DNA of 64,000 nt. Origin: an uncultured Holophagae bacterium. GTDB lineage: Bacteria; Acidobacteriota; Thermoanaerobaculia; Thermoanaerobaculales; Sulfomarinibacteraceae. The stretch's first letter is position 1. Every line of letters starts with the position of its first letter. The notes under the pieces were generated by a model. That model searched no databases. It worked only from the letters and a program-made list of their open reading frames with translations, and was not told the origin of the DNA. Location of the stretch: the NCBI GenBank assembly GCA_963797055.1, contig CAWCOD010000002.1, positions 491,598-555,597 on the forward strand, read 5' to 3'. Positions 5,090 to 56,712 of this stretch are shown piece after piece. A program made the position numbers and the translations under genes.

Positions 5090-5154
5090 CCCCGCCCACC
5101 CCCGCGCGATCGAAGATCGAAGAACAAAGATCGAAGATCCCGCGCCCACCCGGG
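5090..5154. repeat. C-tract box / 7-mer array (GAAGATC, GAACAAA) / C-tract box
   Basis: CCCCGCCCACCCCC, then GATCGAAGATCGAAGAACAAAGATCGAAGATCC, then CGCGCCCACCCGGG. Confidence 0.9.
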
Positions 5155-5490: not shown

Positions 5491-5721
5491 GGCGGCGGTC
5501 AATTCGCAATTCGCAATTCGGATTGGTGTTGGCGGCCCGGGGGCCTGGTTGGTGCCAATTTGACAACTGCCGTTCCGAGCCCCACATTGATCTCAATAAC
5601 ATCTTCGAGATGAATGGGTAAATTTCAGAAGCGTTGATGGGTCTCGCGTCAGGGGTATGGCTGTGGGGTTGTTTCTGCGATTGATTCCTACAAACAAACG
5701 CGCGAGCGACATTGGAGAACG

Positions 5722-5835
5722 GCGCCTCCCTCGGAGGTGCCTGGCATCCCGATTCGCCGAGGTCGATGAGCGACCTGGCTCGTGGGGGCGAATCGGCGTG
5801 CCTGGCACCCTCACGGGAAGCGCGGCGGGAACATC
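5722..5835 (+). repeat. Dispersed repeat family B, copy 1
   Basis: GGAGGTGCCTGGCATCCCGATTCGCC, a variable loop, then GGCGAATCGGCGTGCCTGGCACCCTCACGGGAAGCG. Confidence 0.85.
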
Positions 5836-5951
5836 GGCGCGTCGAAAATGACACGTCCTGCCTGCTCCGTCGCGCCAGTTCTCCCTTCGCGCTCCCCGAG
5901 GTTACTCGCGGCCGGTGGCCGCGCCCACTGCCGCATCGGGTGGGTGGGCGG

Positions 5952-5984
5952 CAACTTTCAACTTTCGACTTTTCAACTTCCAAC
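5952..5984. repeat. 7-mer array (CAACTTT-like) after GGGTGGGTGGGCGG
   Basis: Box at 5938..5951. The array ends 15 nt before ATG 6000. Confidence 0.9.
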
Positions 5985-5999
5985 TCGAGAGGGGAGATC

Positions 6000-7667
6000 A
6001 TGAAAACGAAACACGTCGTGTTGTTGGCGGCGATTATTGTGTGCTGCTCAGGATTGGCGATGGCCCAGACCGAGTGGGTCGAATACCCGGACAACCCGGT
6101 CCTTGGGCCGGGTGATCCGGGGGCGTGGGACTCAGCTTACCGGGAGGTCCTCAACGTCGTGTCCGACGGCTCGATGTATCACCTGTACTTCTGGGGCACC
6201 GATGACGAGGACAACATCCCGGCCGCCATCGGCCATGCCACCTCATCAGACGGCGTGACGTGGACCATTGATCCCAACAACCCGGTATTGACCACGGGGG
6301 CCGAGGGGGAGTGGGACGAAGGCGGCATCGTTAATTTCGCAGTGATTTACGACAACGCCGAGTTCCACGTGTGGTACGCAGGGTGGATCGACGACTGGAA
6401 CTCTGGCGTCGGGTATGCCACCTCGCCCGACGGCAGCACGTGGACGAAGTACTCGGGGAACCCGGTCCTCGGCCACGGGTCTGCCGGGTCGTTCGATGAG
6501 AGCGGCGTTTTCCCTCGCAGCGTGATTTTCGACGGGGGAACCTACCGGATGTGGTACACGGGAGTGGACGTGCCCGATTTCTTCTTTACGATCGGTTACG
6601 CCGAATCCCCCGACGGGATCTCGTGGACAAAGCACCCGGGCCCGGTCCTCGGACCGGGATCGGGTTGGGACTCCTGGGACGTGTGGGGTCCGTCGGTCAT
6701 CTTTGACGGGTCGATCTACCACATGTGGTACACGGGATCCGAGCTTGTCGAGGGCTGGGTGTTCCCCGGGGGAATCGGCTACGCCGCCTCGGCGGACGGC
6801 ATCGAGTGGACGAAGTACCCGGACAATCCGGTGTTCGTTTTAGACGAGAGGCTAGTGAGTTATGGGAGTGTCGTGTTTGACGGCTCGGCCTACCGGATGT
6901 GGTATATGGATGGGGTCGTCGAGGGACCACCGGCGGAGATCGCGTACGCCACCTCCGACTGTTGCGCCCCCCCGATTTTCCGGCAGACCATCCCAGCGGC
7001 GGCGCTGGCATCGGGCGCTCAGGGATCCTTCTACCAGACCGATTTGGACCTCAACAACGCCGGTGACCAGCCGGTGGAGTACGAGTTCTGGTGGCTGCCC
7101 CGGGGCGAGACCAACACCGAGCCGACCAGGTCGGAGACCTTCAGCCTCGGTGCGGGCATGAGCGTGCGCTACGCCAATGTGCTGTCCGAGGTCTTCGGCC
7201 TTGAGCCCAACTCCTTCGGGGCGCTGTCGATTCTGTCGTCGAGCCCGGATCTGCTGGCCATGAGCCGGACCTACAACAACCCCGAGGGCGAGGACGCGGG
7301 CACCTTCGGCCAGGCCATTCCGGCGGTGCCACCGAGCGACTTCATCCAGACCGGCGAGCGACGGAGAATCCTCTTCGCCAGCGAGCACGAGGACCTGCGG
7401 TTCAACGTGGGCTGCCAGAGCGGCAGCGGCGAAGGGACCATGATCGTCAACCTCGAGCTCTTCGATGACGAGGGCACGTCGTTGGAGCAGACCATGATGA
7501 TCCTCAGGGCCTGGGGCAACGACCAGCTCAACCGGATCTTCCAGGACTACATGCCGGTGAACGGCTACGTCGATGTCTGGACCACCTTGCAGAACAAGAG
7601 CTTCTACTGCTACGGATCGGTGCTCGACAACGTGACCAGTGATCCGACGACGGTGCTGCCGCAGTGA
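6000..7667 (+). CDS. Secreted GH43/GH130-like beta-propeller protein with conserved C-terminal domain of unknown function (paralog 1)
   Basis: ORF 5712..7667. ATG 6000 follows RBS GAGAGGGGAG and gives signal peptide [23 protein letters not shown]. Five to six blade repeats (DG..YHMWY ... IGYA.S.DG..WTK...NPVL). The C-terminal ~230 aa ([24 protein letters not shown] ... [16 protein letters not shown]) is shared with 8048..9717 and 18796..20439. Confidence 0.85.
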
Positions 7668-7880
7668 GCCAGGGAGCAGGGCAGCGCTCCCATCGGAGGC
7701 GCGGCGGGCAGTCCCGAGCTCGACCGAGGCCGACCAACGACCTGTCATCGTCGGAGGAGCGAAATCGCGGCGTGCCTGGCACCCTCATGGGAAGCGCGGC
7801 GGGAACATCGGCGCGACGAAAATGACACGTCCTGCCTGCTCGCGTCGCTGCCCGTTCTCCCTTCGCGCTCTCCGAGGTTG

Positions 7881-7954
7881 CCAGGTACGCGCATTGTGCG
7901 GCCCCATCGACATCGCCCGGCCGTCGCCAGTTGTTCGCACAATGACGTACCTGG
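7881..7954. repeat. Hairpin element family E, copy 1
   Basis: CCAGGTACGCGCATTGTGCGGCC, about a 30-nt loop, then GTTCGCACAATGACGTACCTGG. It is inserted in the paralog-2 leader relative to the paralog-1 leader. Confidence 0.8.
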
Positions 7955-8000
7955 CACGCCCGATCATCGCGCCCACTGCCAGATCCAAGTGGGAGCGCGG

Positions 8001-8032
8001 CAACTTTCAACTGTCAACTTTCAACTTCCAAC
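8001..8032. repeat. 7-mer array (CAACTTT-like) in the paralog-2 leader
   Basis: CAACTTTCAACTGTCAACTTTCAACTTCCAAC; homologous to 5952..5984. Confidence 0.9.
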
Positions 8033-8047
8033 CCGAGAGGGGGAGTC

Positions 8048-9717
8048 ATGAACGCGACACGAGTGACGTTATTGGCGGTGATTCTGTGTGCTCATTGTCG
8101 CGGTGGCGTCGGCGCAGACCGAGTGGGTTGAAAATCCGGTCGATCCGGTGCTCGGGACGGGTGAGCCGGGGTCCTGGGACTACATCCGACTGCCGGCTGA
8201 GGTCGTCCTGGTTGACGGCACCTACCACCTCTTCTTCGGCGGTCAGCCGGAGGGTGACCGATCGCCTATTCGACGCTCTTCAGTTGGGGCACGCGACGTC
8301 GTCGGATGGTGTGACCTGGGAGATCGACCCGGCCAACCCGGTTCTGACTCTTGGAGGGGCGGGTGAATGGGACTCCGCGACCCTCCTGCCGGGAGCCATC
8401 GTCCACGATGGGAACGGATTTCACCTGTGGTACCACGGGAGCAACCCGACGGAGATACCTACCTCAGCGCGGTCGGTTATGCGACTTCGCCGGATGGCTC
8501 AAACTGGGTGAAACACGACGGCAACCCGATCATGGGCGAGGGACTGCCCGGGACCTACGACGACGGAGGTGTGCTGCCTCGCACGGTGATCGTCCGAGAC
8601 GGACTCTACCAGATGTGGTACACCGCGATTCATCGCTCGGACAACGAGTATGATTGGCGAATCGGCTACGCCGTCTCGGACGACGGTCTGGACTGGACCC
8701 GGCACCCTGTCCCGGTGCTGGAACCAGGTGTCGGGTGGGAGCAACTGATCGTCTTTGCTCCTCATGTGAGATTCGAGAGGTCGCAGTACCACATGTGGTA
8801 TAGCGGCTCCAATGGCGGGACCTTCAATATCGGATATGCTGTCTCGTCAGACGGCATCGAGTGGACCAGGTATTGGGACAACCCCGTCGTGTCCCGAGAC
8901 CCCTCGATTGCGGCCGAGCTCCCGTTGATTGTCCTCAACCCGGACACCCAGACATACGAGATGTGGTACCGAAACCTGGTCAATCTCAGCATCTACCGAG
9001 CCGTGTCGAACTGCTGTGCCACGGTGCATCTGTTGATCATTCCGGCCGCCGCAGTGGCCTCGGGCGCTCAAGGGTGCCTTCTACCAGACCGACGTGGACC
9101 TCAACAACGCCGGTGAGCAGCCGGTGGAGTACGAGTTTCTGTGGTTGCCCAGGGGCGAGACCAACACCGACCCGATGACCTCGGAGCCCTTCAGCCTCGG
9201 CGCTGGCATGAGCGTTCGGTACGCCAACGTGTTGTCCGAGGTCTTCGGTCTCGAGCCCAACGCCTTCGGTGCCGTCGGCATTCTTGTCCTCGAGCCCGGA
9301 TCTTCTGGCCATGAGCCGGACCTACAACATACCGAGGGTGACGGATCTGCCGGGACCTTCGGCCAGGCGATTCCGGCCATCCCACCGAGCGACTTCATCC
9401 AGACCGGAGAGCGGCGGCGGATCCTGTTCGCCAGCGAGAACGAGGATTTGCGGTTCAACGTGGGCTGTCAGAGCGGCGGTGACGGAACCATGGTGGTCAA
9501 CCTCGAGCTCTTCGACCACGAGGGCAGCTCGTTGGGGACAGAGATGATGATCCTCAGGGCCTGGGGCAACGACCAGATGAATCGGATCTTCCAGGACTAC
9601 ATGCCGGTGAACGGCTACGTGGACGTGTGGACCACAGACGCCGACAGAAGCTTCTACTGCTACGGCTCGGTGCTGGACAACGTGACCAGCGACCCGACGA
9701 CGATTTTGCCGCAGTGA
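8048..9717 (+). pseudogene. Frameshifted paralog 2 of the secreted beta-propeller / C-terminal-domain protein
   Basis: Homologous sequence is spread over ORFs 7639..8511, 8088..8366, 8367..9116 and 9094..9717. ATG 8048 follows the same leader and RBS as paralog 1. Frame changes near 8090, 8265, 8455 and 9080, plus a compensating pair near 9285 and 9335. Confidence 0.8.
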
Positions 9718-9737
9718 ACAAGGGAGCAGGGGGCAGG

Positions 9738-9925
9738 GCGCGTCCCTCGGAGGTGCCTGGCATCCCGATTCGCCGAGGTCGACAAGACCGATTCGTCCCG
9801 CTGGAGCGAATCGGCGTGCCTGGCATCCTCACGGGAAGCGCAGTCGGAGAATCGGCGCGTTGAAGTCGGTAGATCGAACCGAATGAGAGGAATTTGTGGT
9901 GCGGCCGTCTCGGCTGCAATCACAA
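9738..9925 (+). repeat. Dispersed repeat family B, copy 2 (long form)
   Basis: Same stem modules plus a 3' extension (GGAGAATCGGCGCGTTGAAGTCGG ... TTGTGGTGCGGCCGTCTCGGCTGCAAT). Confidence 0.9.
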
Positions 9926-9931
9926 CGGAAC

Positions 9932-9972
9932 CAAGATCGAAGAACAAAGATCGAAGATCCCCCACCCACCCA
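9932..9972. repeat. 7-mer array (GAAGATC/GAACAAA) plus CCCCCACCCACCC box
   Basis: Same array type as 5108..5140 and 5265..5303. Confidence 0.9.
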
Positions 9973-10005
9973 GGACCGACGAGAAGATTCGGGGTGGGCG
10001 GAGGA

Positions 10006-13000
10006 TCAGTTCTCGATCCGGACGGAAACCGCCTTGGACACCCCGGGCTCCTCCATGGTGATGCCGTAGAGCACATCGGCACGGGCCATGGTGCGCCGAT
10101 TGTGGGTGATCAGCACGAACTGGGTGTGGTCGGTCATGGCGGCGATCAGATCAGCTAGCCGCTCCACGTTGGCGTCGTCCAGCGGCGCGTCGACCTCGTC
10201 GAGGATGCAGAAGGGCGACGGCTTGATGCGGAATAGCGATATGAGCAGCGACAGCGCCGTCAGCGCCTTTTCTCCGCCGGACAGGAGTTGGACCGACTGG
10301 GTCTTTTTGCCGGGGGGCTGGGCGGTGATGTCGATGCCGGATTCCAGAGGATTGTCCTCGTCCACCAGTTGGAGGGTGGCGCTGCCACCGCCGAACAGGG
10401 TGTTGAAGGTCTCGTGGAAGACCGTGTTCACCTGCTCCAAAGTGGTGACGAAGCGCTCGGTGCAGTAGGCATCGATCTCGCGAATCGTGGCGTCGAGTTT
10501 ACGCAGCGCCTCGACAAGATCCTTGCGTTGAGTGGATAGGAACTCGGACCGTTGCGTGAGCTCGTCCACCTCCTGGAGGGCGAGCAGATTGACGGGTCCG
10601 ACCTTGTCGATCCTGAGCCGCAGGTCGTCGATTTTTTCTTGGAGCTGCTCCGGTTCGGCGCCGTCGTCGGGCTCGAGCTGGGCGAGGGCCTCCGGAGTGG
10701 TATCGAGATCCGCCGCCGCCGACTCCCTCAGGCGATTCCATTCGGCATCGAGGCGGGTGAGATCCATCTGGACCTCGTGCAACGACTCCCTCGCGCGATC
10801 GTGCTCCTCGCGGCGCTGTCGGACCTCCTTGTCGAACCGCTCCACCTGAGCCGCCACCTGGTCGATATTCTCACCAAGCCGCCGTTCCCGGTCGCGGGCC
10901 GATGCCAGCATGCCCTGTTCCTCGGCCAATCGGGTCCTCGACGTCACCACTTCCTGCTCGGTTCGGGTCAACTCGCCGGTGAGCCGTTCCACGTCGGCTT
11001 CGAGTTTGGCGATGCGCTCGTCCAGTCGTTGGCCTTCGCCCGCCAGCCGGTCGGTTTCGCTGCGGGCGGCCTCGGCTCGCTCTTCGGCCAGTCGTTCCTC
11101 GGCCCGCCAACGATCGAGTCGGCGCAGGGCCTCGGCGGTCTCATCGCGGTGCCCGTCGAGACTCGCCGTGGCGTCATCCACCGCCTGTTCGAGCTCGGCC
11201 GTTCGAGTTTCGAAAGCACTGACCTCCGACTGGAGAATCTCGCGCCGTTTGGATAGTTCGGCCTGCTGCGTCCTGCTGCGTTCGCTCTCGGCGGCCACCG
11301 ACTCGAACTCGTTCTTGAGTCGCGACACATCCTGGCCGAGGGATTGCTCGACGGCGGTGGCGCGGCCCCGATCCTGCTCGGCCTGGAGGAGAAGGTTGTC
11401 CAGCTCACCGAGTTCGCTGTTTACCTCCACGAGCTGTGATGCTAGCGAACGGTGGAGGGCGGATGCCGTGTTCTCCCGACCTTCCATGGCCGCGATTTCG
11501 GCCGCGAGGTGCTGGCGGTCATCGCGCAGGGCGAGCGCACCGTGGACGCGGGCTCCGGCGGTGGGTGGTTCCTGGGTGAGGCCTCGCCAGATGACACCAT
11601 CCGGCCCGACAAAGATTGCCTGCGGGTGCTGTTCTGCGAGGGATCGCGCGTTCGTCGGACTGGAGCAGATGAATGCCGGGGGAAGGATCCGCGTGATCCA
11701 GAGCAGATCCTCGGCCGTGATTCCGGCGTGGTCGAACAGGGACTCGGCGCCTTCTGGTGTCTTGAGGATCGGGGGAGAGGGCGCGTTCGACGTGACGGCC
11801 AGTCGGAGTCGCCCGTCGAGATCGGCCACCGCTTTCAGCTGCTTCGTGGACAGGCCCTCACACCGGATCACCGGAAGCTCGAGCCAGTCGGACCACACCC
11901 GGTCGAGCAACCCGGTCTGGTCCTTTCTGGGGCTCAGGTAGTCGCTCAGTTGTCCGTCGAGCATGTCCGAGGGAAGGCACTCGGTGAGCTGCTCGGACAG
12001 TGCGGAGTGGCGGGCCAGCTCACGTTCGACGCCAGCCAGGCGGTGGCGCAAATTCCACAGTTCCTGCCCCAGACTCTCGGCCTCGTTCCTGGAGGTCCTG
12101 GCCTCCTCTTGCAGACCCGTTCGGCGTTCCACGAGACCTCGCCGCCGCAGTTCGAGTTCCTCCACGGCCGCGGTGGCGTGCTGGCTGTCCTCGGCCGCAG
12201 CCCGGTATCTGGCGTCGGATTCGGCGAGGCGGCCGTCCAGCGTGGTGCTCTCGTGTTCCAGTTGCTCGAGGGAGTAGCTCAAACGATCCTGTTCACGCTC
12301 GAGCTCGCCAAGCAGATTGCGATTTGAAGTGAGCGACGAGATGGCCCGGAGCAGTTCCTGGCGCCGCTGAGTTGCCTGATTCTCGGTCTCCTGGAGCAGA
12401 CCGCGGGCCGTGGCCTCGGCTTCGGTCGCTTCCTCCACCGTCTTCCGGATGGTGGCCAGCGCCTCTTCCAGGGTCGATTGCCGTTCGGCAGCGTCGTCGA
12501 TGCGTTCGGAGAGCTCAGCCCGGTTCGAACTCAGCGTGGTGCCGTCGACTCGGGCCCTGGCGACCGACTCTCTGAGGTTGTCGATCAGATCGGCCGACCG
12601 CTCCAGGAACGCCTCCATGCGTTCTCGGGAGGTCATGAGGTCGGCGACCTCGGTGCGGGCTCCCTCCACCTCGGTGCGGGTGGTCTCGAGGTTGGCCCGG
12701 GCCTGGGTCAGATCCGCCTCGGAGCTGCCGAGGCTGGCGGCGGCAGCCACCACCTCGTTTTCGATCTGGGCTCGATGACGCGAACCCTCCCGACGGGATG
12801 TGTCGAGCTCGCGAGACGACAGGATCAGCAGAGTGCGGATGGTGTCCTTGAGCTCGTCCTGGAGGCGCTGGTGGCGCCTTGCCTGGCCGGCCTGCCGTTT
12901 CATCTGACGCAGCGACCGGTCCACCTCCGAGATCACATCGTCGAGCCTGATGAGGTTCTGGCGTGTGTGCTCGAGCTTGAGTTCGGCATCGTGCTTGCGC

Positions 13001-13990: not shown

Positions 13991-14082
13991 ACTCGGGGAG
14001 CGCCAGGGGGAGATGGGCGCGATGAAGTTCGGTCATCGATCTCATAGCGTTCGTCGCGCCCTGGCCGTCAGTGCGCTCCCCG

Positions 14083-14185
14083 TCGAGGATGCCAGGCACG
14101 CCGATTCGCCTGAAGTTCACGGGCACATCGACGCACGATGGCGAATCGGGATGCCAGGCACCTCCGAGGAACGCGCCCTCTTCCG
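14083..14185 (-). repeat. Dispersed repeat family B, copy 3 (inverted, short)
   Basis: Reverse complement of the core stems, with a different loop. Confidence 0.8.
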
Positions 14186-18196: not shown

Positions 18197-18247
18197 TTAA
18201 GTTGAAAGTTGAACGTTAAACGTTGAACGTTCCCACCCTCCCTCCCG
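18197..18247. repeat. 7-mer array (GTTGAAC/GTTAAAC) plus CCCACCCTCCCTCCCGG
   Basis: TTAAGTTGAAAGTTGAACGTTAAACGTTGAACGTT followed by the C-tract box. Confidence 0.85.
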
Positions 18248-18251
18248 GATC

Positions 18252-18425
18252 GTGAGAGGGGGCAACCTGCCGGCGGCAGCGATTGTGGCCTGGGCCGGGA
18301 GGGATGTGGCGGGAGTTGATCCGGCCACTGGCCACTCGCTGGTGACGGCTGGTCACCGCGGCCGGCTTGTCACGGCGAAGCCCGAAGGGCGGAGCCGGAA
18401 GGCCGCGAGTAACCTCGGGGAGCGC
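18252..18425 (+). repeat. Dispersed repeat family F, copy 1
   Basis: GGGGGCAACCTGCCGGCGGCAGCGATTGTGGCC ... CTGGTGACGGCTGGTCACCGCGGCC ... GGCCGCGAGTAACCTCGGGGAGCGC. Confidence 0.8.
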
Positions 18426-18435
18426 GGTTGGGAGA

Positions 18436-18640
18436 AGGCGCGTCCCTCGGAGGTGCCTGGCATCCCGATTCGCCAACGTCGACAAACCGACTCGTCCCGT
18501 TGGAGCGAATCGGCGTGCCTGGCATCCTCACGGGAAGCGTGGCTGGAGAATCGGCGCGTTGAAATCGGCACCTGAAACCGAACGAGAGGGGCATTGTGGC
18601 GGAGCCGTCCCGGCTGGGATTCTGGCCGCGATTGAGCGCG
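18436..18640 (+). repeat. Dispersed repeat family B, copy 4
   Basis: About 107 nt identical to 24744..24850. Confidence 0.9.
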
Positions 18641-18795: not shown

Positions 18796-20439
18796 ATGGG
18801 TGGAAGACGAGTTGTGGTGGTGTTGGCGATTGGGGTGTGCTGTGCGGGAATCGCAATGGGGCAAACGGACTGGGTCGACAACCCGGACAATCCGGTCATC
18901 GAGTCGGGTGAGTCCGGATCGTGGAATGCAGGCGGGAACTGGGGCACGGCCGCCTTCTTTGACGGATCGACCTACCACATGTGGTTCACCGGGGAGGACC
19001 AAAACGGGTATTGGTCCGGCGTCGGCCACGCCACCTCACCCGATGGCGTCGAATGGACCATGGATCCGGCCAACCCCGTAGTTTCCGCCGGCGAATCCGG
19101 GGAGTGGGACGACTCCTACGTTATTTCGGGGGCGGTGATCCACGACGGGACCCAGTTCCACATGTGGTACTCGGGCTCCGGCGGTGCCGAGGAATCGCTC
19201 GGCTACGCCACTTCGCCCGACGGCAGTATGTGGACCAAACACGACGGCAATCCTGTCATGGATGCTGGGGCGTCCGGCACGTGGGACGACTTATGGGTCG
19301 GGCCCTCCTCGGTCATTGCAGACGGCGAGAACCTCCAGATGTGGTATTGGGGCTCCAACGGGTCTGTCGGGAGTATCGGGTATGCCGAATCGCCGGACGG
19401 GATCGATTGGACCAAGCGCCAGGAGCCGGTCCTCGAACCGCAGGAAATCCCCGGGGGGGCCTGGGACGCGCAGACTCTCTACGGCCCGCTCGTCATTTTC
19501 AACCCACTCAACCCACCCATGTACCAGATGTGGTACGGAGGGCACGATTCGGACAACCCCCTTGTCGGCTATGCCTTCTCGAGCGACGGCATCGAGTGGA
19601 CGCGACACCGTGACAATCCGGTCATCGAAGCCGGCCATCCCGTTGTTCTCTTTGACGGGTCCGACTATCACATGTGGTACGCCTACAAAGATGGTGGCTG
19701 GCAAATGTCCTACGCCACCTCTGACTGCTGCCCCGGTGTGGCTGGTCTGACGCACATGCAGACCATCCCGGCTGCGGCGGTGGCCTCGGGCGCCGAGGGG
19801 GCCTTCTACCAGACCGACGTAGACCTCAACAACCCCGGTGAGCAGCCGACGGAGTACAAGTTCATGTGGCTTCCCCGCGGTGAAACCAACTCCGACCCCA
19901 TGGCGTCGGAGTCCTTCAGTCTCGGCGCCGGCATGAGCGTGCGCTATGCCAATGTGCTGTCCGAGGTCTTCGGGCTCGAGCCCAACTCCCTCGGGGCGTT
20001 GTCCATTCTGTCATCGAGCCCCGATCTGCTGGCCATGAGCAGGACCTACAACAGTCCCGAGGGCGAGGAGGCGGGCACCTTTGGCCAGGCCATTCCAGCG
20101 GTTGCGCCCGTTGATTTCATTACAACCGATGAGAGGCGGAGGATTCTCTTCGCCAGCGAAAACGATGATCTGCGTTTCAACGTGGGCTGCCAAAACGGCG
20201 GAGATCTCAGCATGGTGGTCAACCTCGAGCTCTTCGACTCCGAGGGCTCGTCGTTGGAAAGCACAATCATGCTCCTTAGGGCTTGGAGCAACGATCAGTT
20301 CAACCGTGTGTTTGGTGATTACCAGCCGGTCAACGGCTATGTCGATGTGTGGACCACAAACGCTGGCAAGAGCTTCTATTGCTACGGATCGGTGCTGGAC
20401 AACGTGACCAGCGACCCGACGACGATTTTGCCGCAATGA
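18796..20439 (+). CDS. Secreted GH43/GH130-like beta-propeller protein with conserved C-terminal domain (paralog 3)
   Basis: 547-aa ORF after RBS AAAGGAGGAAG. Signal peptide MGGRRVVVVLAIGVCCAGIAMGQ. Same blade motif (STYHMWFTG, VGHATSPDGVEWT). The C-terminal domain is nearly identical in parts to paralog 1 ([39 protein letters not shown]). Confidence 0.9.
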   Translation: MGGRRVVVVLAIGVCCAGIAMGQTDWVDNPDNPVIESGESGSWNAGGNWGTAAFFDGSTYHMWFTGEDQNGYWSGVGHATSPDGVEWTMDPANPVVSAGESGEWDDSYVISGAVIHDGTQFHMWYSGSGGAEESLGYATSPDGSMWTKHDGNPVMDAGASGTWDDLWVGPSSVIADGENLQMWYWGSNGSVGSIGYAESPDGIDWTKRQEPVLEPQEIPGGAWDAQTLYGPLVIFNPLNPPMYQMWYGGHDSDNPLVGYAFSSDGIEWTRHRDNPVIEAGHPVVLFDGSDYHMWYAYKDGGWQMSYATSDCCPGVAGLTHMQTIPAAAVASGAEGAFYQTDVDLNNPGEQPTEYKFMWLPRGETNSDPMASESFSLGAGMSVRYANVLSEVFGLEPNSLGALSILSSSPDLLAMSRTYNSPEGEEAGTFGQAIPAVAPVDFITTDERRRILFASENDDLRFNVGCQNGGDLSMVVNLELFDSEGSSLESTIMLLRAWSNDQFNRVFGDYQPVNGYVDVWTTNAGKSFYCYGSVLDNVTSDPTTILPQ

Positions 20440-24684: not shown

Positions 24685-24743
24685 CCGTCTGCCGGCCCAA
24701 AGCGAAGTGCGGAATCCTCATCCCCCACCCATCCGCGAGGGGA

Positions 24744-24985
24744 GAAGGCGCGTCCCTCGGAGGTGCCTGGCATCCCGATTCGCCAACGTCGACAAACCGA
24801 CTCGTCCCGTTGGAGCGAATCGGCGTGCCTGGCATCCTCACGGGAAGCCCGCTCGGAGAATCTGCGCGTTGAAGTCGGCAGATTGAACCCAACGAGGTGG
24901 ATTTTGTGGCGCAGGCCTCTGGCCTGCATTCACTCAATCAATCAACGCCAGAATTGCAGGCGGGACGCCTGCGCTACAAAGGCGT
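24744..24985 (+). repeat. Dispersed repeat family B, copy 5
   Basis: Identical core to copy 4; the 3' extension diverges. Confidence 0.9.
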
Positions 24986-32265: not shown

Positions 32266-32307
32266 AAATTCGGAATTCGAAATTCGGAATTCGGCCCACC
32301 CGCCCGG
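32266..32307. repeat. 7-mer array (AATTCGG/AATTCGA) plus CCCACCCGCCCGG box
   Basis: AAATTCGGAATTCGAAATTCGGAATTCGG followed by CCCACCCGCCCGG. Confidence 0.9.
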
Positions 32308-35242: not shown

Positions 35243-35317
35243 CCGGGTATAACGTTGTGCGGCCAAATGCCCTCGAGCGGTCATCAATCGTCAGGGCCGC
35301 ACAACGTTAATACCGGG
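35243..35317. repeat. Hairpin element family E, copy 2
   Basis: CCGGGTATAACGTTGTGCGGCC, about a 30-nt loop, then GGCCGCACAACGTTAATACCGGG. Same architecture as copy 1, with both arms changed together. Confidence 0.8.
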
Positions 35318-35369
35318 CAACCTCGGGGAGCGCGCTGGGAGAATCGGCGCGATCAATCGAGGCAAAAAG

Positions 35370-35545
35370 GCAGCCGAGACGGTTGCTCCACAATGTTCTC
35401 TTCGTTGGGTTCGATATACCGATTTCACCGCGCCGATTCTCCGGCCGCGCTTCCCGTGAGGATGCCAGGCACGCCGATTCGCTCCAGCGGGCCGAATCGG
35501 TTTGTCGACCTCGGCGAATCGGGATGCCAGGCACCTCCGAGGAAT
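35370..35545 (-). repeat. Dispersed repeat family B, copy 6 (inverted, long form)
   Basis: Reverse complement of the 9738..9925 architecture, including the extension. Confidence 0.85.
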
Positions 35546-35781
35546 GACTTTCTCCCAACGCGCTCCTCGGGGGGGCGGGTGAGTTTCGAAACTCGAAATT
35601 CGAAATCAACACCTGGGTCCGTAAAAGCGTATAGCTTATAGCCCGGGTGGGTGAGGAAGCGAGTCCGAGCCCCGAATCCCGAGCCCCGATCGGAGTATCA
35701 GCGGACGGAAGAGTCGGAACCCATTGTCCGGGCGGAAGCATCGCCCCCTGAATTTGGTTTGCCCAGGAGGGAGAGCAACGA

Positions 35782-44384: not shown

Positions 44385-44545
44385 GCTTTGTGGTGCGGCC
44401 GTCTCGGCTGTAATTCTGGCCTTGACTGAATGGGCGAATGCAGGCCGGAGGCCTGCTCCACAATGGCTCTTCTCGTTGGGTTCAATCTACCGACTTCAAC
44501 GCGCCGATTCTCCGACTGCGCTTCCCGTCGATCCGATTTTGACGG
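44385..44545 (-). repeat. Family B 3'-extension module fused to a family A arm
   Basis: TTGTGGTGCGGCCGTCTCGGCTGTAAT ... GCGCCGATTCTCCGACTGCGCTTCCCG, then GACGGTGCCTGGCACCGG. Confidence 0.75.
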
Positions 44546-44589: not shown

Positions 44590-44757
44590 AGCGCGCCCCT
44601 CTCCCCGCAGCGCTCCCCGAGGTTACTCGCGGCCGGTGGCCGCGGTGACCAGCCGTCACCAGCGGGTGGCCGTAAGGCCTCTGATCCTGCGTACAGGATC
44701 GGACATGGCCGCCGCACACGGCCACGGCCACAACCGCTGCCGCCGGCAGGTTGCCCC
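44590..44757 (-). repeat. Dispersed repeat family F, copy 2 (inverted)
   Basis: Reverse complement shares the same three modules with 18252..18425. Fragments also occur at 5450..5490 and 5893..5930. Confidence 0.8.
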
Positions 44758-46953: not shown

Positions 46954-47049
46954 CCCGGGCGGGTGGAATCCGCAATTCACAATTCGCAATTCGCAATTCG
47001 CAATTCGAAATACGTATTACGTAATACGAAATGGTCGGGTGGGCGGGGG
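46954..47049. repeat. CCCGGGCGGGTGG / CAATTCG x5 and TACGTAA arrays / GGTCGGGTGGGCGGGGG
   Basis: Lies between the sulfatase-like gene and tmk, with a G-tract box on each side. Confidence 0.9.
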
Positions 47050-49339: not shown

Positions 49340-49530
49340 CCCAACCGCGCTCCCCGCGGTTGCCACCCTCGCATTCCGATCTCCATGTCGGTGCCAGGCA
49401 CCGCCGCAGATGTAGCGACCTCGTACTCCGATTCGATTTCGACGGTGCCTGGCACCGGCCCGCGCGTATTGGATGCGCTCCAGAACAGCACGCCCGCCCA
49501 TCGCGCCCCTCACTCCTGGTGGGTGGGGGA
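49340..49530 (-). repeat. Dispersed repeat family A, copy 4 (inverted)
   Basis: Reverse complement of the 5313..5490 consensus. Arms at 49390..49402 and 49444..49456. Confidence 0.85.
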
Positions 49531-49624: not shown

Positions 49625-49737
49625 GCGGGCGGGCGGGGAATCTGCAATCTGCAATCTGCAATCTGTAATCTATCGCAATTCGAAATGGGCGGGTGGGGGT
49701 TCTCAAAGCCCTATAGCCCGGGCGGGTGGGTGGCGGC
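49625..49737. repeat. GCGGGCGGGCGGGG / AATCTGC x4 array / GGGCGGGTGGGGG / CCCGGGCGGGTGGGTGGCGG
   Basis: Three G-tract boxes and one array, ending 30 nt before the SSS transporter start. Confidence 0.9.
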
Positions 49738-54990: not shown

Positions 54991-55210
54991 TCCCTCGGGG
55001 AGCGCCTCGGGGAGATGGGCGCGACGAAGGAACTGAAATCCATGATTGAACTCGGATTCCTGTCGCGCCCATACGCTCCAGGGAGATTGGCGCGCGGAAA
55101 CCGACGAACCGAACCGAACGCGCGGGAGTTGTGGTGCGGCCGTCTCGGCTGCATTTTTGGTTTGATTGACCGCACGAAAGCAGGCCAGAAGCCCGCTCCA
55201 CAGCGATGAA

Positions 55211-56192: not shown

Positions 56193-56284
56193 CGCTTTTA
56201 CCTCCGTCCGGTCATATGGTTCACACTACCATCGACCGGTTCGGCGAGCTTTTTCCGCCGGAGCGCCATGTGATGGCGCGATGA

Positions 56285-56400
56285 TCGGAGGTGCCTGGCA
56301 TCCCGATTCGCCAAGGTCGAAAATAGTACCTTCTCGTTGAGCCGAATCGGCGTGCCTGGCAGCCTCACGGGGAGTCCGCTGAGAATTGGGGCGCGACGAA
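56285..56400 (+). repeat. Dispersed repeat family B, copy 8
   Basis: Core stems with a unique AT-richer loop (AAGGTCGAAAATAGTACCTTCTCGTTGAGCC). Confidence 0.85.
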
Positions 56401-56435: not shown

Positions 56436-56645
56436 TCAGCGCGCCCCTCTCCCCGCAGCGCTCCCCGAGGTTGCCACCCTCGCATTCCGATCTCCATGTC
56501 GGTGCCAGGCACCGCCGCAGATGTAGCGACCTCGTGCTCCGATTCGATTTCGACGGTGCCTGGCACCGGCCCGCGCGTATTGGATGCGCTCCAGAACAGC
56601 ACGCCCGCCCATCGCGCCCTCCTCCGATCCGGGTGGGCGGGGGAA
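56436..56645 (-). repeat. Dispersed repeat family A, copy 5 (inverted)
   Basis: Near-identical to 49340..49530 over about 190 nt. Arms at 56501..56513 and 56555..56567. Confidence 0.9.
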
Positions 56646-56712
56646 TCTGCAATCTGCAATCTGCAATCTGCAATCTGCAATCTGCAATTCGCAATTCGCA
56701 ATTCGTAATTCG
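56629..56712. repeat. CCGGGTGGGCGGGGG plus the longest array (AATCTGC x5, then AATTCGC/AATTCGT x4)
   Basis: Box at 56629..56643; about 68 nt of 7-mer repeats, ending about 18 nt from the stop of the EAL gene. Confidence 0.92.

Follow-up and report, generated by a model that had tools for sequence, protein, structure and literature searches.

Family B is an uncatalogued family of the known REP/BIME kind of intergenic palindrome, and its host lineage is the Thermoanaerobaculia, or 'Holophagae'-labelled, Acidobacteriota. The reading that we favor, and consider reasonably likely, is that of a dispersed, non-coding, hairpin-forming mosaic repeat of the REP/REPIN/BIME type in the intergenic DNA of marine-sediment Acidobacteriota, probably recognized by a protein as a single-stranded DNA hairpin. 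The match to this kind of element follows from its extragenic location, its hairpin with conserved imperfections, its strand specificity, the lack of target-site duplications, and its mosaic joins with other repeats. Taken with the Y1-linked hairpins of Acidobacteria, these REP-like features favor recognition of the folded strand by a sequence-specific protein. Family B does not appear to represent new biology.

Within the window (the whole 64 kb stretch of DNA analyzed here), the family-B unit is ~105 nt long and occurs as seven full copies and one decayed copy (Table 1), at a density of ~1 copy per 8 kb. The 26-nt left arm, GGAGGTGCCTGGCATCCCGATTCGCC, has seven exact matches (5733+, 9749+, 14165-, 18449+, 24759+, 35538-, and 56287+) and none in shuffled sequence. 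With up to three mismatches allowed, the right arm is found five times, the other two copies deviating solely at its 3' end. A profile search of the window returns the seven copies and the decayed one with no further match, in agreement with an earlier note that had counted at least eight, including part of one at 7765. That note had also described conserved arms around a less conserved middle, and pairwise identities among the copies bear this out, at 100% in the left arm, 93% in the right arm, and ~60% in the ~30-nt middle. The arm sequences that it gave are indeed conserved, except that the right arm begins with AGCGAATC rather than GGCGAATC in four copies. Similarly, two copies that it reported as identical over about 107 nt are identical over 109 nt (18430-18538 and 24740-24848). 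Its statement that the loops differ freely must be withdrawn: the middles are recognizably related in 5/7 copies and fall into subfamilies, and a TCCT loop is conserved in the short class described below.

Table 1. Positions of family-B copies, their parts, and adjoining features in the window
Feature	Position	Strand	Evidence or remark
Family-B copy in question, one long imperfect hairpin	9738..9841	+	MFE -60.4 kcal/mol, z = -3.9; same stem from RNAalifold
First GTGCCTGGCA near-palindrome, left arm	9753..9762	+	26 window copies vs 0.2 expected
Variable apical region, without consensus structure	9775..9804	+	internal duplicate of left inner stem, CCGATTCG at 9788-9795
Second GTGCCTGGCA near-palindrome, right arm	9816..9825	+	repeats the first directly, at 63 bp distance
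Long-form linker	9842..9895	+	contains GAGAATCGGCGCG, partial duplicate of right inner stem
Canonical REP hairpin with 5' GTGG foot (long-form 3' module)	9896..9918	+	GTGG-TGCGGCCG-TCT-CGGCTGCA
Family-B copy	5721..5824	+	arm match, fold, profile
Decayed family-B copy	7685..7798	+	profile; degenerate left arm, intact right arm
Family-B copy, divergent apical region	14072..14179	-	arm match, fold, profile
Family-B copy, long form	18436..18541	+	arm match, fold, profile; REP at ~18596-18617
Family-B copy, long form	24746..24851	+	arm match, profile; followed by REP inverted doublet 24906-24927(+) / 24956-24977(-)
Family-B copy, long form	35446..35546	-	arm match, fold, profile; REP at 35370-35391(-)
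Family-B copy	56274..56378	+	arm match, fold, profile; antisense to both neighboring genes
REPIN-like inverted doublets	24906-24977, 44390-44461, 55131-55201		-36 to -49 kcal/mol
GGCCGCGAGTAACCTCGGGGAGCGCG..GGGAGAA copies	5888-5906, 7864-7882, 18408-18426, 35316-35334, 44609-44627, 49346-49364, 56457-56475
Family A palindrome pairs	3889/3942, 5367/5420, 13896/13949, 49392/49445, 56503/56556		both orientations
Heptamer arrays (examples)	963-993, 5108-5139, 5952-5985, 8001-8032, 18201-18231, 32267-32294, 46967-47011, 49639-49671, 56644-56712
Paralogous genes with internal ~180-nt repeats	~6096-7667, ~7900-9717, 18796-20439		YATSPDGxxWTK-type motifs; weak GH130/GH32N matches
16-nt inverted repeat GATCCCCCACCCACCC / GGGTGGGCGGAGGATC	9956-10007		overlaps stop of minus-strand SMC gene

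All eight window copies are intergenic, including the one at 14072..14179, since the PNP_UDP_1 domain of the over-long ORF there starts only at residue 182. Their neighbors are ordinary chromosomal genes, encoding SMC, a XerC/D-like recombinase, MoxR, a reprolysin-like peptidase, an nSTAND-WD40 protein, and a PNP-family phosphorylase. The copies at 5721 and 7685 share an origin by tandem segmental duplication with paralogous GH130-like genes. As a separate observation, these genes belong to a set of three with internal repeats, the first two of which form the tandem duplication that carried the family-B copy along; the gene at ~7900-9717 is split into several pieces in the ORF list, possibly by a frameshift. 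The inverted repeat at 9956-10007 is terminator-like in form but lacks a T run; hairpins of this CCCACCC type are found repeatedly across the window (repeat family D7).

The copy in question has complementary arms of 36 nt each (9738-9773 and 9806-9841), such that the complementarity noted earlier is real and extends far beyond the GATTCGCC/GGCGAATC pairing to which it had been assigned. Every full copy folds into a single long imperfect hairpin (-51 to -69 kcal/mol, z = -3.1 to -5.4), in keeping with the earlier view that the element is non-coding. A short outer stem (GCGC.TCCC / GGGA.GCGC) and GAGG/CCTC together enclose two copies of the near-palindrome GTGCCTGGCAT, one in each arm, and inside these the inner stem CCGATTCGC/GCGAATCGG leads to a variable tip. 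GAGG pairs with CCTC, UGCC with GGCA, and GGCAU with GUGCC, and because GTGCCTGGCAT is near-palindromic, its two direct copies are also able to pair with each other. The stem carries a set of fixed imperfections, namely a bulged T (U), a T·T mismatch, a T·G wobble, and a C·C mismatch. In the long form, GAGAATCGGCGCG in the linker is able to pair alternatively with 9765-9776.

Three other functions were considered for parts of this structure and rejected. An attenuator-like alternative pairing would involve four CCGATTCG/CGAATCGG segments, which are confined to one subfamily, and the orientation of the element relative to genes is random. The small ORF that might be read behind the SD-like GGAGG lacks a start codon, and the middle varies by indels that exclude coding. 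On inspection, the sigma-54 promoter candidate (TGGCAT-N5-TTCGC) has its GC one base out of register, and its second element is missing in the short class.

When a genome collection is scanned for two GTGCCTGGCA copies 35-65 nt apart, true family-B copies are found in a Holophagae-labelled MAG (L009, L070) and a Ca. Sulfomarinibacteraceae MAG (L118), while a variant of the family is found in Acidobacteriota MAGs (L055, L065). The Ca. Sulfomarinibacter lineage inhabits marine sediments (PMC8528874). When metagenomes are scanned with the two arms kept constant, the search recovers at least 120 marine-sediment contigs and, among the matches listed, 136 copies with 94 distinct inner sequences. These resolve into two classes. 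Class 2, with a core of 80-83 nt, is the type found in the window. In class 1, with a core of 64 nt, the same arms flank a 13-bp stem that is unrelated to the class-2 one and ends in a TCCT loop, which is kept in 91/98 class-1 copies among the matches listed. The two palindromes lie 45 bp apart in one class and 61-63 bp apart in the other. Comparison with Rfam, as suggested in the earlier note, yields no match at gathering score in the window, only chance-level matches for 9700-10010 at E up to 10, and none in three related loci; no Rfam family therefore matches the window or its relatives. In a search of the literature, the palindrome string turned up in eukaryotic primers and sequences only.

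Evidence that pairing is maintained comes from class 1. Among the copies listed, 14 pairs of its inner stem have changes on both sides, a number reached in 0/500 shuffles, and pairing holds in 88.7% of cells, compared with 36-51% when the partners are slid. Compensatory change is plain at individual positions: one pair appears as AU in 44 copies, CG in 16, and GC in 6, and another as CG in 54 and UA in 25. The window-type stems of class 2 are invariant, with a double change in just 1/23 pairs, and because they never vary, the window-type copies themselves provide no covariation evidence. The stem covariation that was to be expected from the earlier note is thus seen in the class-1 relatives and not in copies of the window type.

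The relatives also indicate which strand folds. Among the matches listed, there are 43 G·T combinations against 5 A·C, and at two positions of the outer stem U·G occurs more often than any other pair. In the class-1 copies listed, the given strand is the more stable in 86/93 when folded as RNA and in 69/93 when folded as DNA, with a mean advantage for the + strand of 4.1 kcal/mol as RNA versus 1.4 as DNA. The excess of G·T over A·C, together with this strand asymmetry in wobble and stability, argues that one particular strand folds.

Pairing is not all that appears to be kept. Identical arms are observed on the left in 142/147 and on the right in 137/147 of the matches listed; these are partly copies on which the search pattern did not impose the arm, although the invariance in relatives is in part a product of the pattern by which they were collected. 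The T·T mismatch is turned into a pair in only one of the copies listed. From such comparison of sequences, the arm sequence appears to be selected beyond pairing, and the conservation of the arms together with the T·T, C·C, and bulged T points to sequence-specific recognition of the folded strand and not to pairing alone. The earlier proposal of selection on a secondary structure therefore survives in part: the element is non-coding, it folds, and pairing is kept in relatives, but the arms are conserved in sequence as well.

With respect to genes, family B is indifferent. Among the matches listed, the flanking-gene contexts comprise 28 co-oriented tandem (>E>), 20 antisense tandem (<E<), 15 convergent (>E<), and 16 divergent (<E>) arrangements, based on crude GC3-based ORF gene calls, with a result that is stable across thresholds. 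Two sets of orthologous gaps (L196/L213/L159 and L155/L127/L122) hold a class-2 copy, a class-1 copy, or no copy, while a closer pair of loci (L147 and L182) has a family-B copy in common. We find no promoter-like or terminator-like site beside the copy in question and no copy-specific target-site duplication, the best flanking direct repeats being no longer than those of mismatched controls. From the near-random orientation, the occurrence in all gap types, the orthologous presence and absence, and the lack of an Rfam match, promoter, terminator, or target-site duplication, it follows that family B is not a gene-specific cis-regulator or a gene-linked riboswitch, leader, or attenuator. Relative to local GC skew, a replication proxy, 64 copies have negative and 40 positive orientation (p ~0.02), a weak signal that is confounded by coding bias and has the opposite sign in the window.

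The same gaps are informative on turnover. In L196 10600-11030, L213 1500-1900, and L159 6000-6350, orthologous divergent gaps between conserved genes have almost wholly different repeat content, and the orthologous divergent gaps L155 3250-3700, L127 10000-10400, and L122 150-560 likewise differ in their repeats. The intergenic DNA of this lineage turns over far faster than its genes.

The main rival to a protein-recognized DNA hairpin is a structured RNA, which we regard as rather unlikely. Here, family B would be a multicopy sRNA transcribed from a promoter of its own, or else a UTR hairpin acting in the transcript, with a 3'-end stabilizer, an RNase III site, and a protein sponge as variants; its SD-like GGAGG and its anti-SD-like UCCUC/CCUC might serve to mask or titrate ribosome-binding sequences. 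Much of the evidence above is shared by this explanation, including the inner-stem covariation and the G·U excess with its conserved U·G pairs, and the stronger strand asymmetry with RNA parameters and the conserved TCCT apical loop fit an RNA role equally well. Some copies also lie 25-80 nt upstream of start codons. Against it stands the relation to genes: orientation is near-random, with one window copy antisense to both neighbors, gene distance is variable, and presence or absence in orthologous gaps is independent of the gene. The lack of a conserved promoter or terminator, the lack of an Rfam match, and a density of ~1 copy per 8 kb weigh in the same direction.

The earlier note had offered a paired protein-binding site as its other interpretation, and a pair of duplex sites for a dimeric protein reading GTGCC(T/A)GGCAC, for instance a global regulator or nucleoid-associated protein, would make the hairpin incidental. 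This would explain why the palindrome occurs 26 times in the window when 0.2 occurrences are expected, why it forms the core of at least two otherwise unrelated families, as direct pairs in B and as inverted pairs 53 bp apart in A, and why its central base is fixed and not 'repaired' for pairing. It nevertheless fits poorly overall and is improbable, as the spacing of 45 versus 61-63 bp between classes is not helically phased while compensatory change preserves the complementarity of the intervening DNA, and a strand-asymmetric tolerance of wobble is meaningless for duplex binding. More improbable still is a classical MITE, that is, a deletion derivative of a DDE insertion sequence that moves by cut-and-paste via terminal inverted repeats. 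Although a size of ~100 nt, long inverted arms, and multicopy intergenic occurrence with presence/absence differences among related contigs are all reminiscent of a MITE, flanking direct repeats no longer than in mismatched controls indicate no target-site duplication, no transposase-bearing full-length element with family-B ends (GGAGGTGCCTGGCATCC-type termini) is found in 1.7 Mb, and the element ends are blurred, with flanks made of other shared modules. More generally, Correia/NEMIS, RUP, and other MITEs resemble family B in being small, multicopy, intergenic inverted repeats, and Correia/NEMIS and RUP-type elements can be co-transcribed and processed, but MITEs have defined termini and target-site duplications, neither of which is seen for family B.

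The protein-recognized REP-type hairpin that we favor has its closest counterpart in the REP/REPIN elements and RAYT (TnpA-REP) proteins of E. coli, Pseudomonas, and Stenotrophomonas. Like family B, these repeats are extragenic, reach high copy number, and lack target-site duplications, and both form ~100-nt hairpins from two conserved arms with a less conserved middle, conserved imperfections, compensatory pairing, and a strand-specific structure. The arrangement of two inverted units around a looser spacer is found here as 36-nt arms around a variable ~30 nt. Unlike REP/REPINs, the family-B core lacks the 5' GT[AG]G foot, which is present instead in the separate 3' module; its arms hold a near-palindrome as a direct repeat; and no RAYT gene is seen across the window and 1.7 Mb of related loci. 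At the base of the family-B hairpin there is no GT[AG]G foot on either strand, and there is no CnGA foot in the canonical position.

In its mosaic organization, family B resembles the BIMEs of enterobacteria, which are intergenic assemblies of REP units and other motifs in variable order and orientation, although the motifs of BIMEs are unrelated in sequence to family B and its partner modules. BIMEs are known to bind IHF, gyrase, or Pol I. The ERIC/IRU elements of Enterobacteriaceae (~127 bp, highly conserved between species, with size variants from internal insertions) are likewise long imperfect intergenic palindromes that occur in either orientation and in size variants; they differ from family B in sequence and host phylum, and ERIC copy number is usually lower. 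Like family B, ERIC/IRU elements are not known to have a transposase.

Family B shares its genome with canonical GT[GA]G REPs, among which its copies lie. The earlier observation that long forms add a 3' module is upheld by TTGTGG...GGCTGC in four copies (9749, 18449, 24759, and 35538). This module is an independent repeat consisting of GTGG, a 7-8 bp GC stem, and a TCT/TCC loop, and RAYT-associated REPs of the same form as this GTGG hairpin have been described (Quentin et al. 2018, PMC6006769 Table S1). In the window, it occurs as three singlets (9896-9918, ~18596-18617, and 35370-35391) and as three inverted doublets that form REPIN-like long hairpins, one of which is fused to a family-B long form. 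The 25-nt REP unit is also present in related loci (L009, L239, L151, L232, L224, and L144).

Other modules join family B in similar fashion. Mosaic joins are observed with GTGG-REPs in four copies, with the GCGCTCCCCGAGGTTGCC module in at least five, with family A in two, and with heptamer arrays; a GCCGCGA...GGGAGCG module is among the partners, and GGCCGCGAGTAACCTCGGGGAGCGCG..GGGAGAA, with seven copies in the window, often adjoins family B. The GTGCCTGGCA core is common to families A and B. Family A itself consists of two 15-bp perfect palindromes, CGGTGCC(A/T)GGCACCG, exactly 53 bp apart with a conserved 38-nt spacer. We also note some twenty intergenic tandem arrays of 7-nt units (AATCTGC, AATTCGC, CAACTTT, GATCGAA, ATTGCAG, and others), usually beside CCCACCC/GGGTGGG hairpins. 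In the metagenome relatives, similar arrays (GGATTTC, GGAATTA) lie 45-100 nt upstream of family B in fixed orientation.

Within the Acidobacteriota, high-copy hairpins tied to Y1 transposases are documented: class 3 TnpA-Y1-associated hairpins occur in Acidobacteria and Planctomycetes, with ~600 atypical copies in Solibacter usitatus (PMC6006769), where CnGA-GCCGCGACCGTAAGGGAGCGG hairpins flank class 3 TnpA-Y1 genes (PMC6006769 Table S1). Family B shares their phylum and high copy number, but its hairpin does not match the CnGA-GCCGCGACCGTAAGGGAGCGG unit. Judged by eye, it is instead an adjoining module (CGGAGCCGGAAGGCCGCGAGTAACCTCGGGGAGCGCGG) that resembles this unit, with GCCGCGA...GGGAGCG in common and a CGGA foot in one copy. 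The GGCCGCGAGTAACCTCGGGGAGCGCG..GGGAGAA module is likewise reminiscent of the Solibacter usitatus hairpins.

These parallels suggest how family B may be propagated. The functional form would be the folded single strand of one particular strand, with the invariant arms and fixed imperfections serving as the recognition surface of a sequence-specific protein by which the element is copied or maintained. The likeliest candidate would be a single-copy Y1/HUH enzyme (RAYT / TnpA-Y1-type) encoded elsewhere in the genome, which may work on DNA hairpins formed at the replication fork without generating target-site duplications. Copies would also spread passively by segmental duplication, and a transcribed-through hairpin would probably be a generic RNA stem with a secondary role. 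Motif regexes and tblastn with IS200 and RayT sequences detect no Y1/HUH transposase gene in the window and 1.7 Mb of related loci, so the proposed enzyme is one that we purely infer. The two weak matches in this search are antisense to real genes and were rejected. There is also an outside chance that the arms, with their GTGCCTGGCAT duplex, T·T and C·C mismatches, and bulged T, are recognized by a hairpin-specific enzyme distinct from both the GTAG-type RAYTs and the known IS transposases.

Beyond this phylum, GTGCCTGGCAC lies centrally or at the tip of long palindromes, each specific to its genome, and of tandem arrays of 18-48 nt in the genome collection (loci L001-L119), in Planctomycetota, Actinomycetota, Chloroflexota, Bacillota, Bifidobacterium, Pseudomonadota, and Pseudoduganella, although the search pattern imposed 10/11 of its bases, and palindromic extension is expected of any hairpin repeat. 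No neighboring gene is shared among these cross-phylum loci, and a scan of a viral collection for the palindrome pattern gives only two matches. By a rough estimate, comparable counts could arise for an average 10-mer that lies within repeats, and we therefore make no claim of over-representation. If this breadth is not an artefact of the way in which the sequences were gathered, it would point to a widely distributed, undescribed palindrome-processing system.

The intergenic DNA of these abundant but uncultured marine-sediment Acidobacteriota is packed with modular repeats. Knowing family B averts mis-annotation, as several over-long ORFs run through its copies, and it explains assembly breaks in MAGs. 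It also provides a lineage marker, with insertion polymorphisms for strain tracking. Finally, the existence of two classes with identical arms and unrelated inner hairpins offers a clean test of whether REP-type machinery reads the sequence of the arms or the pairing of the stem.
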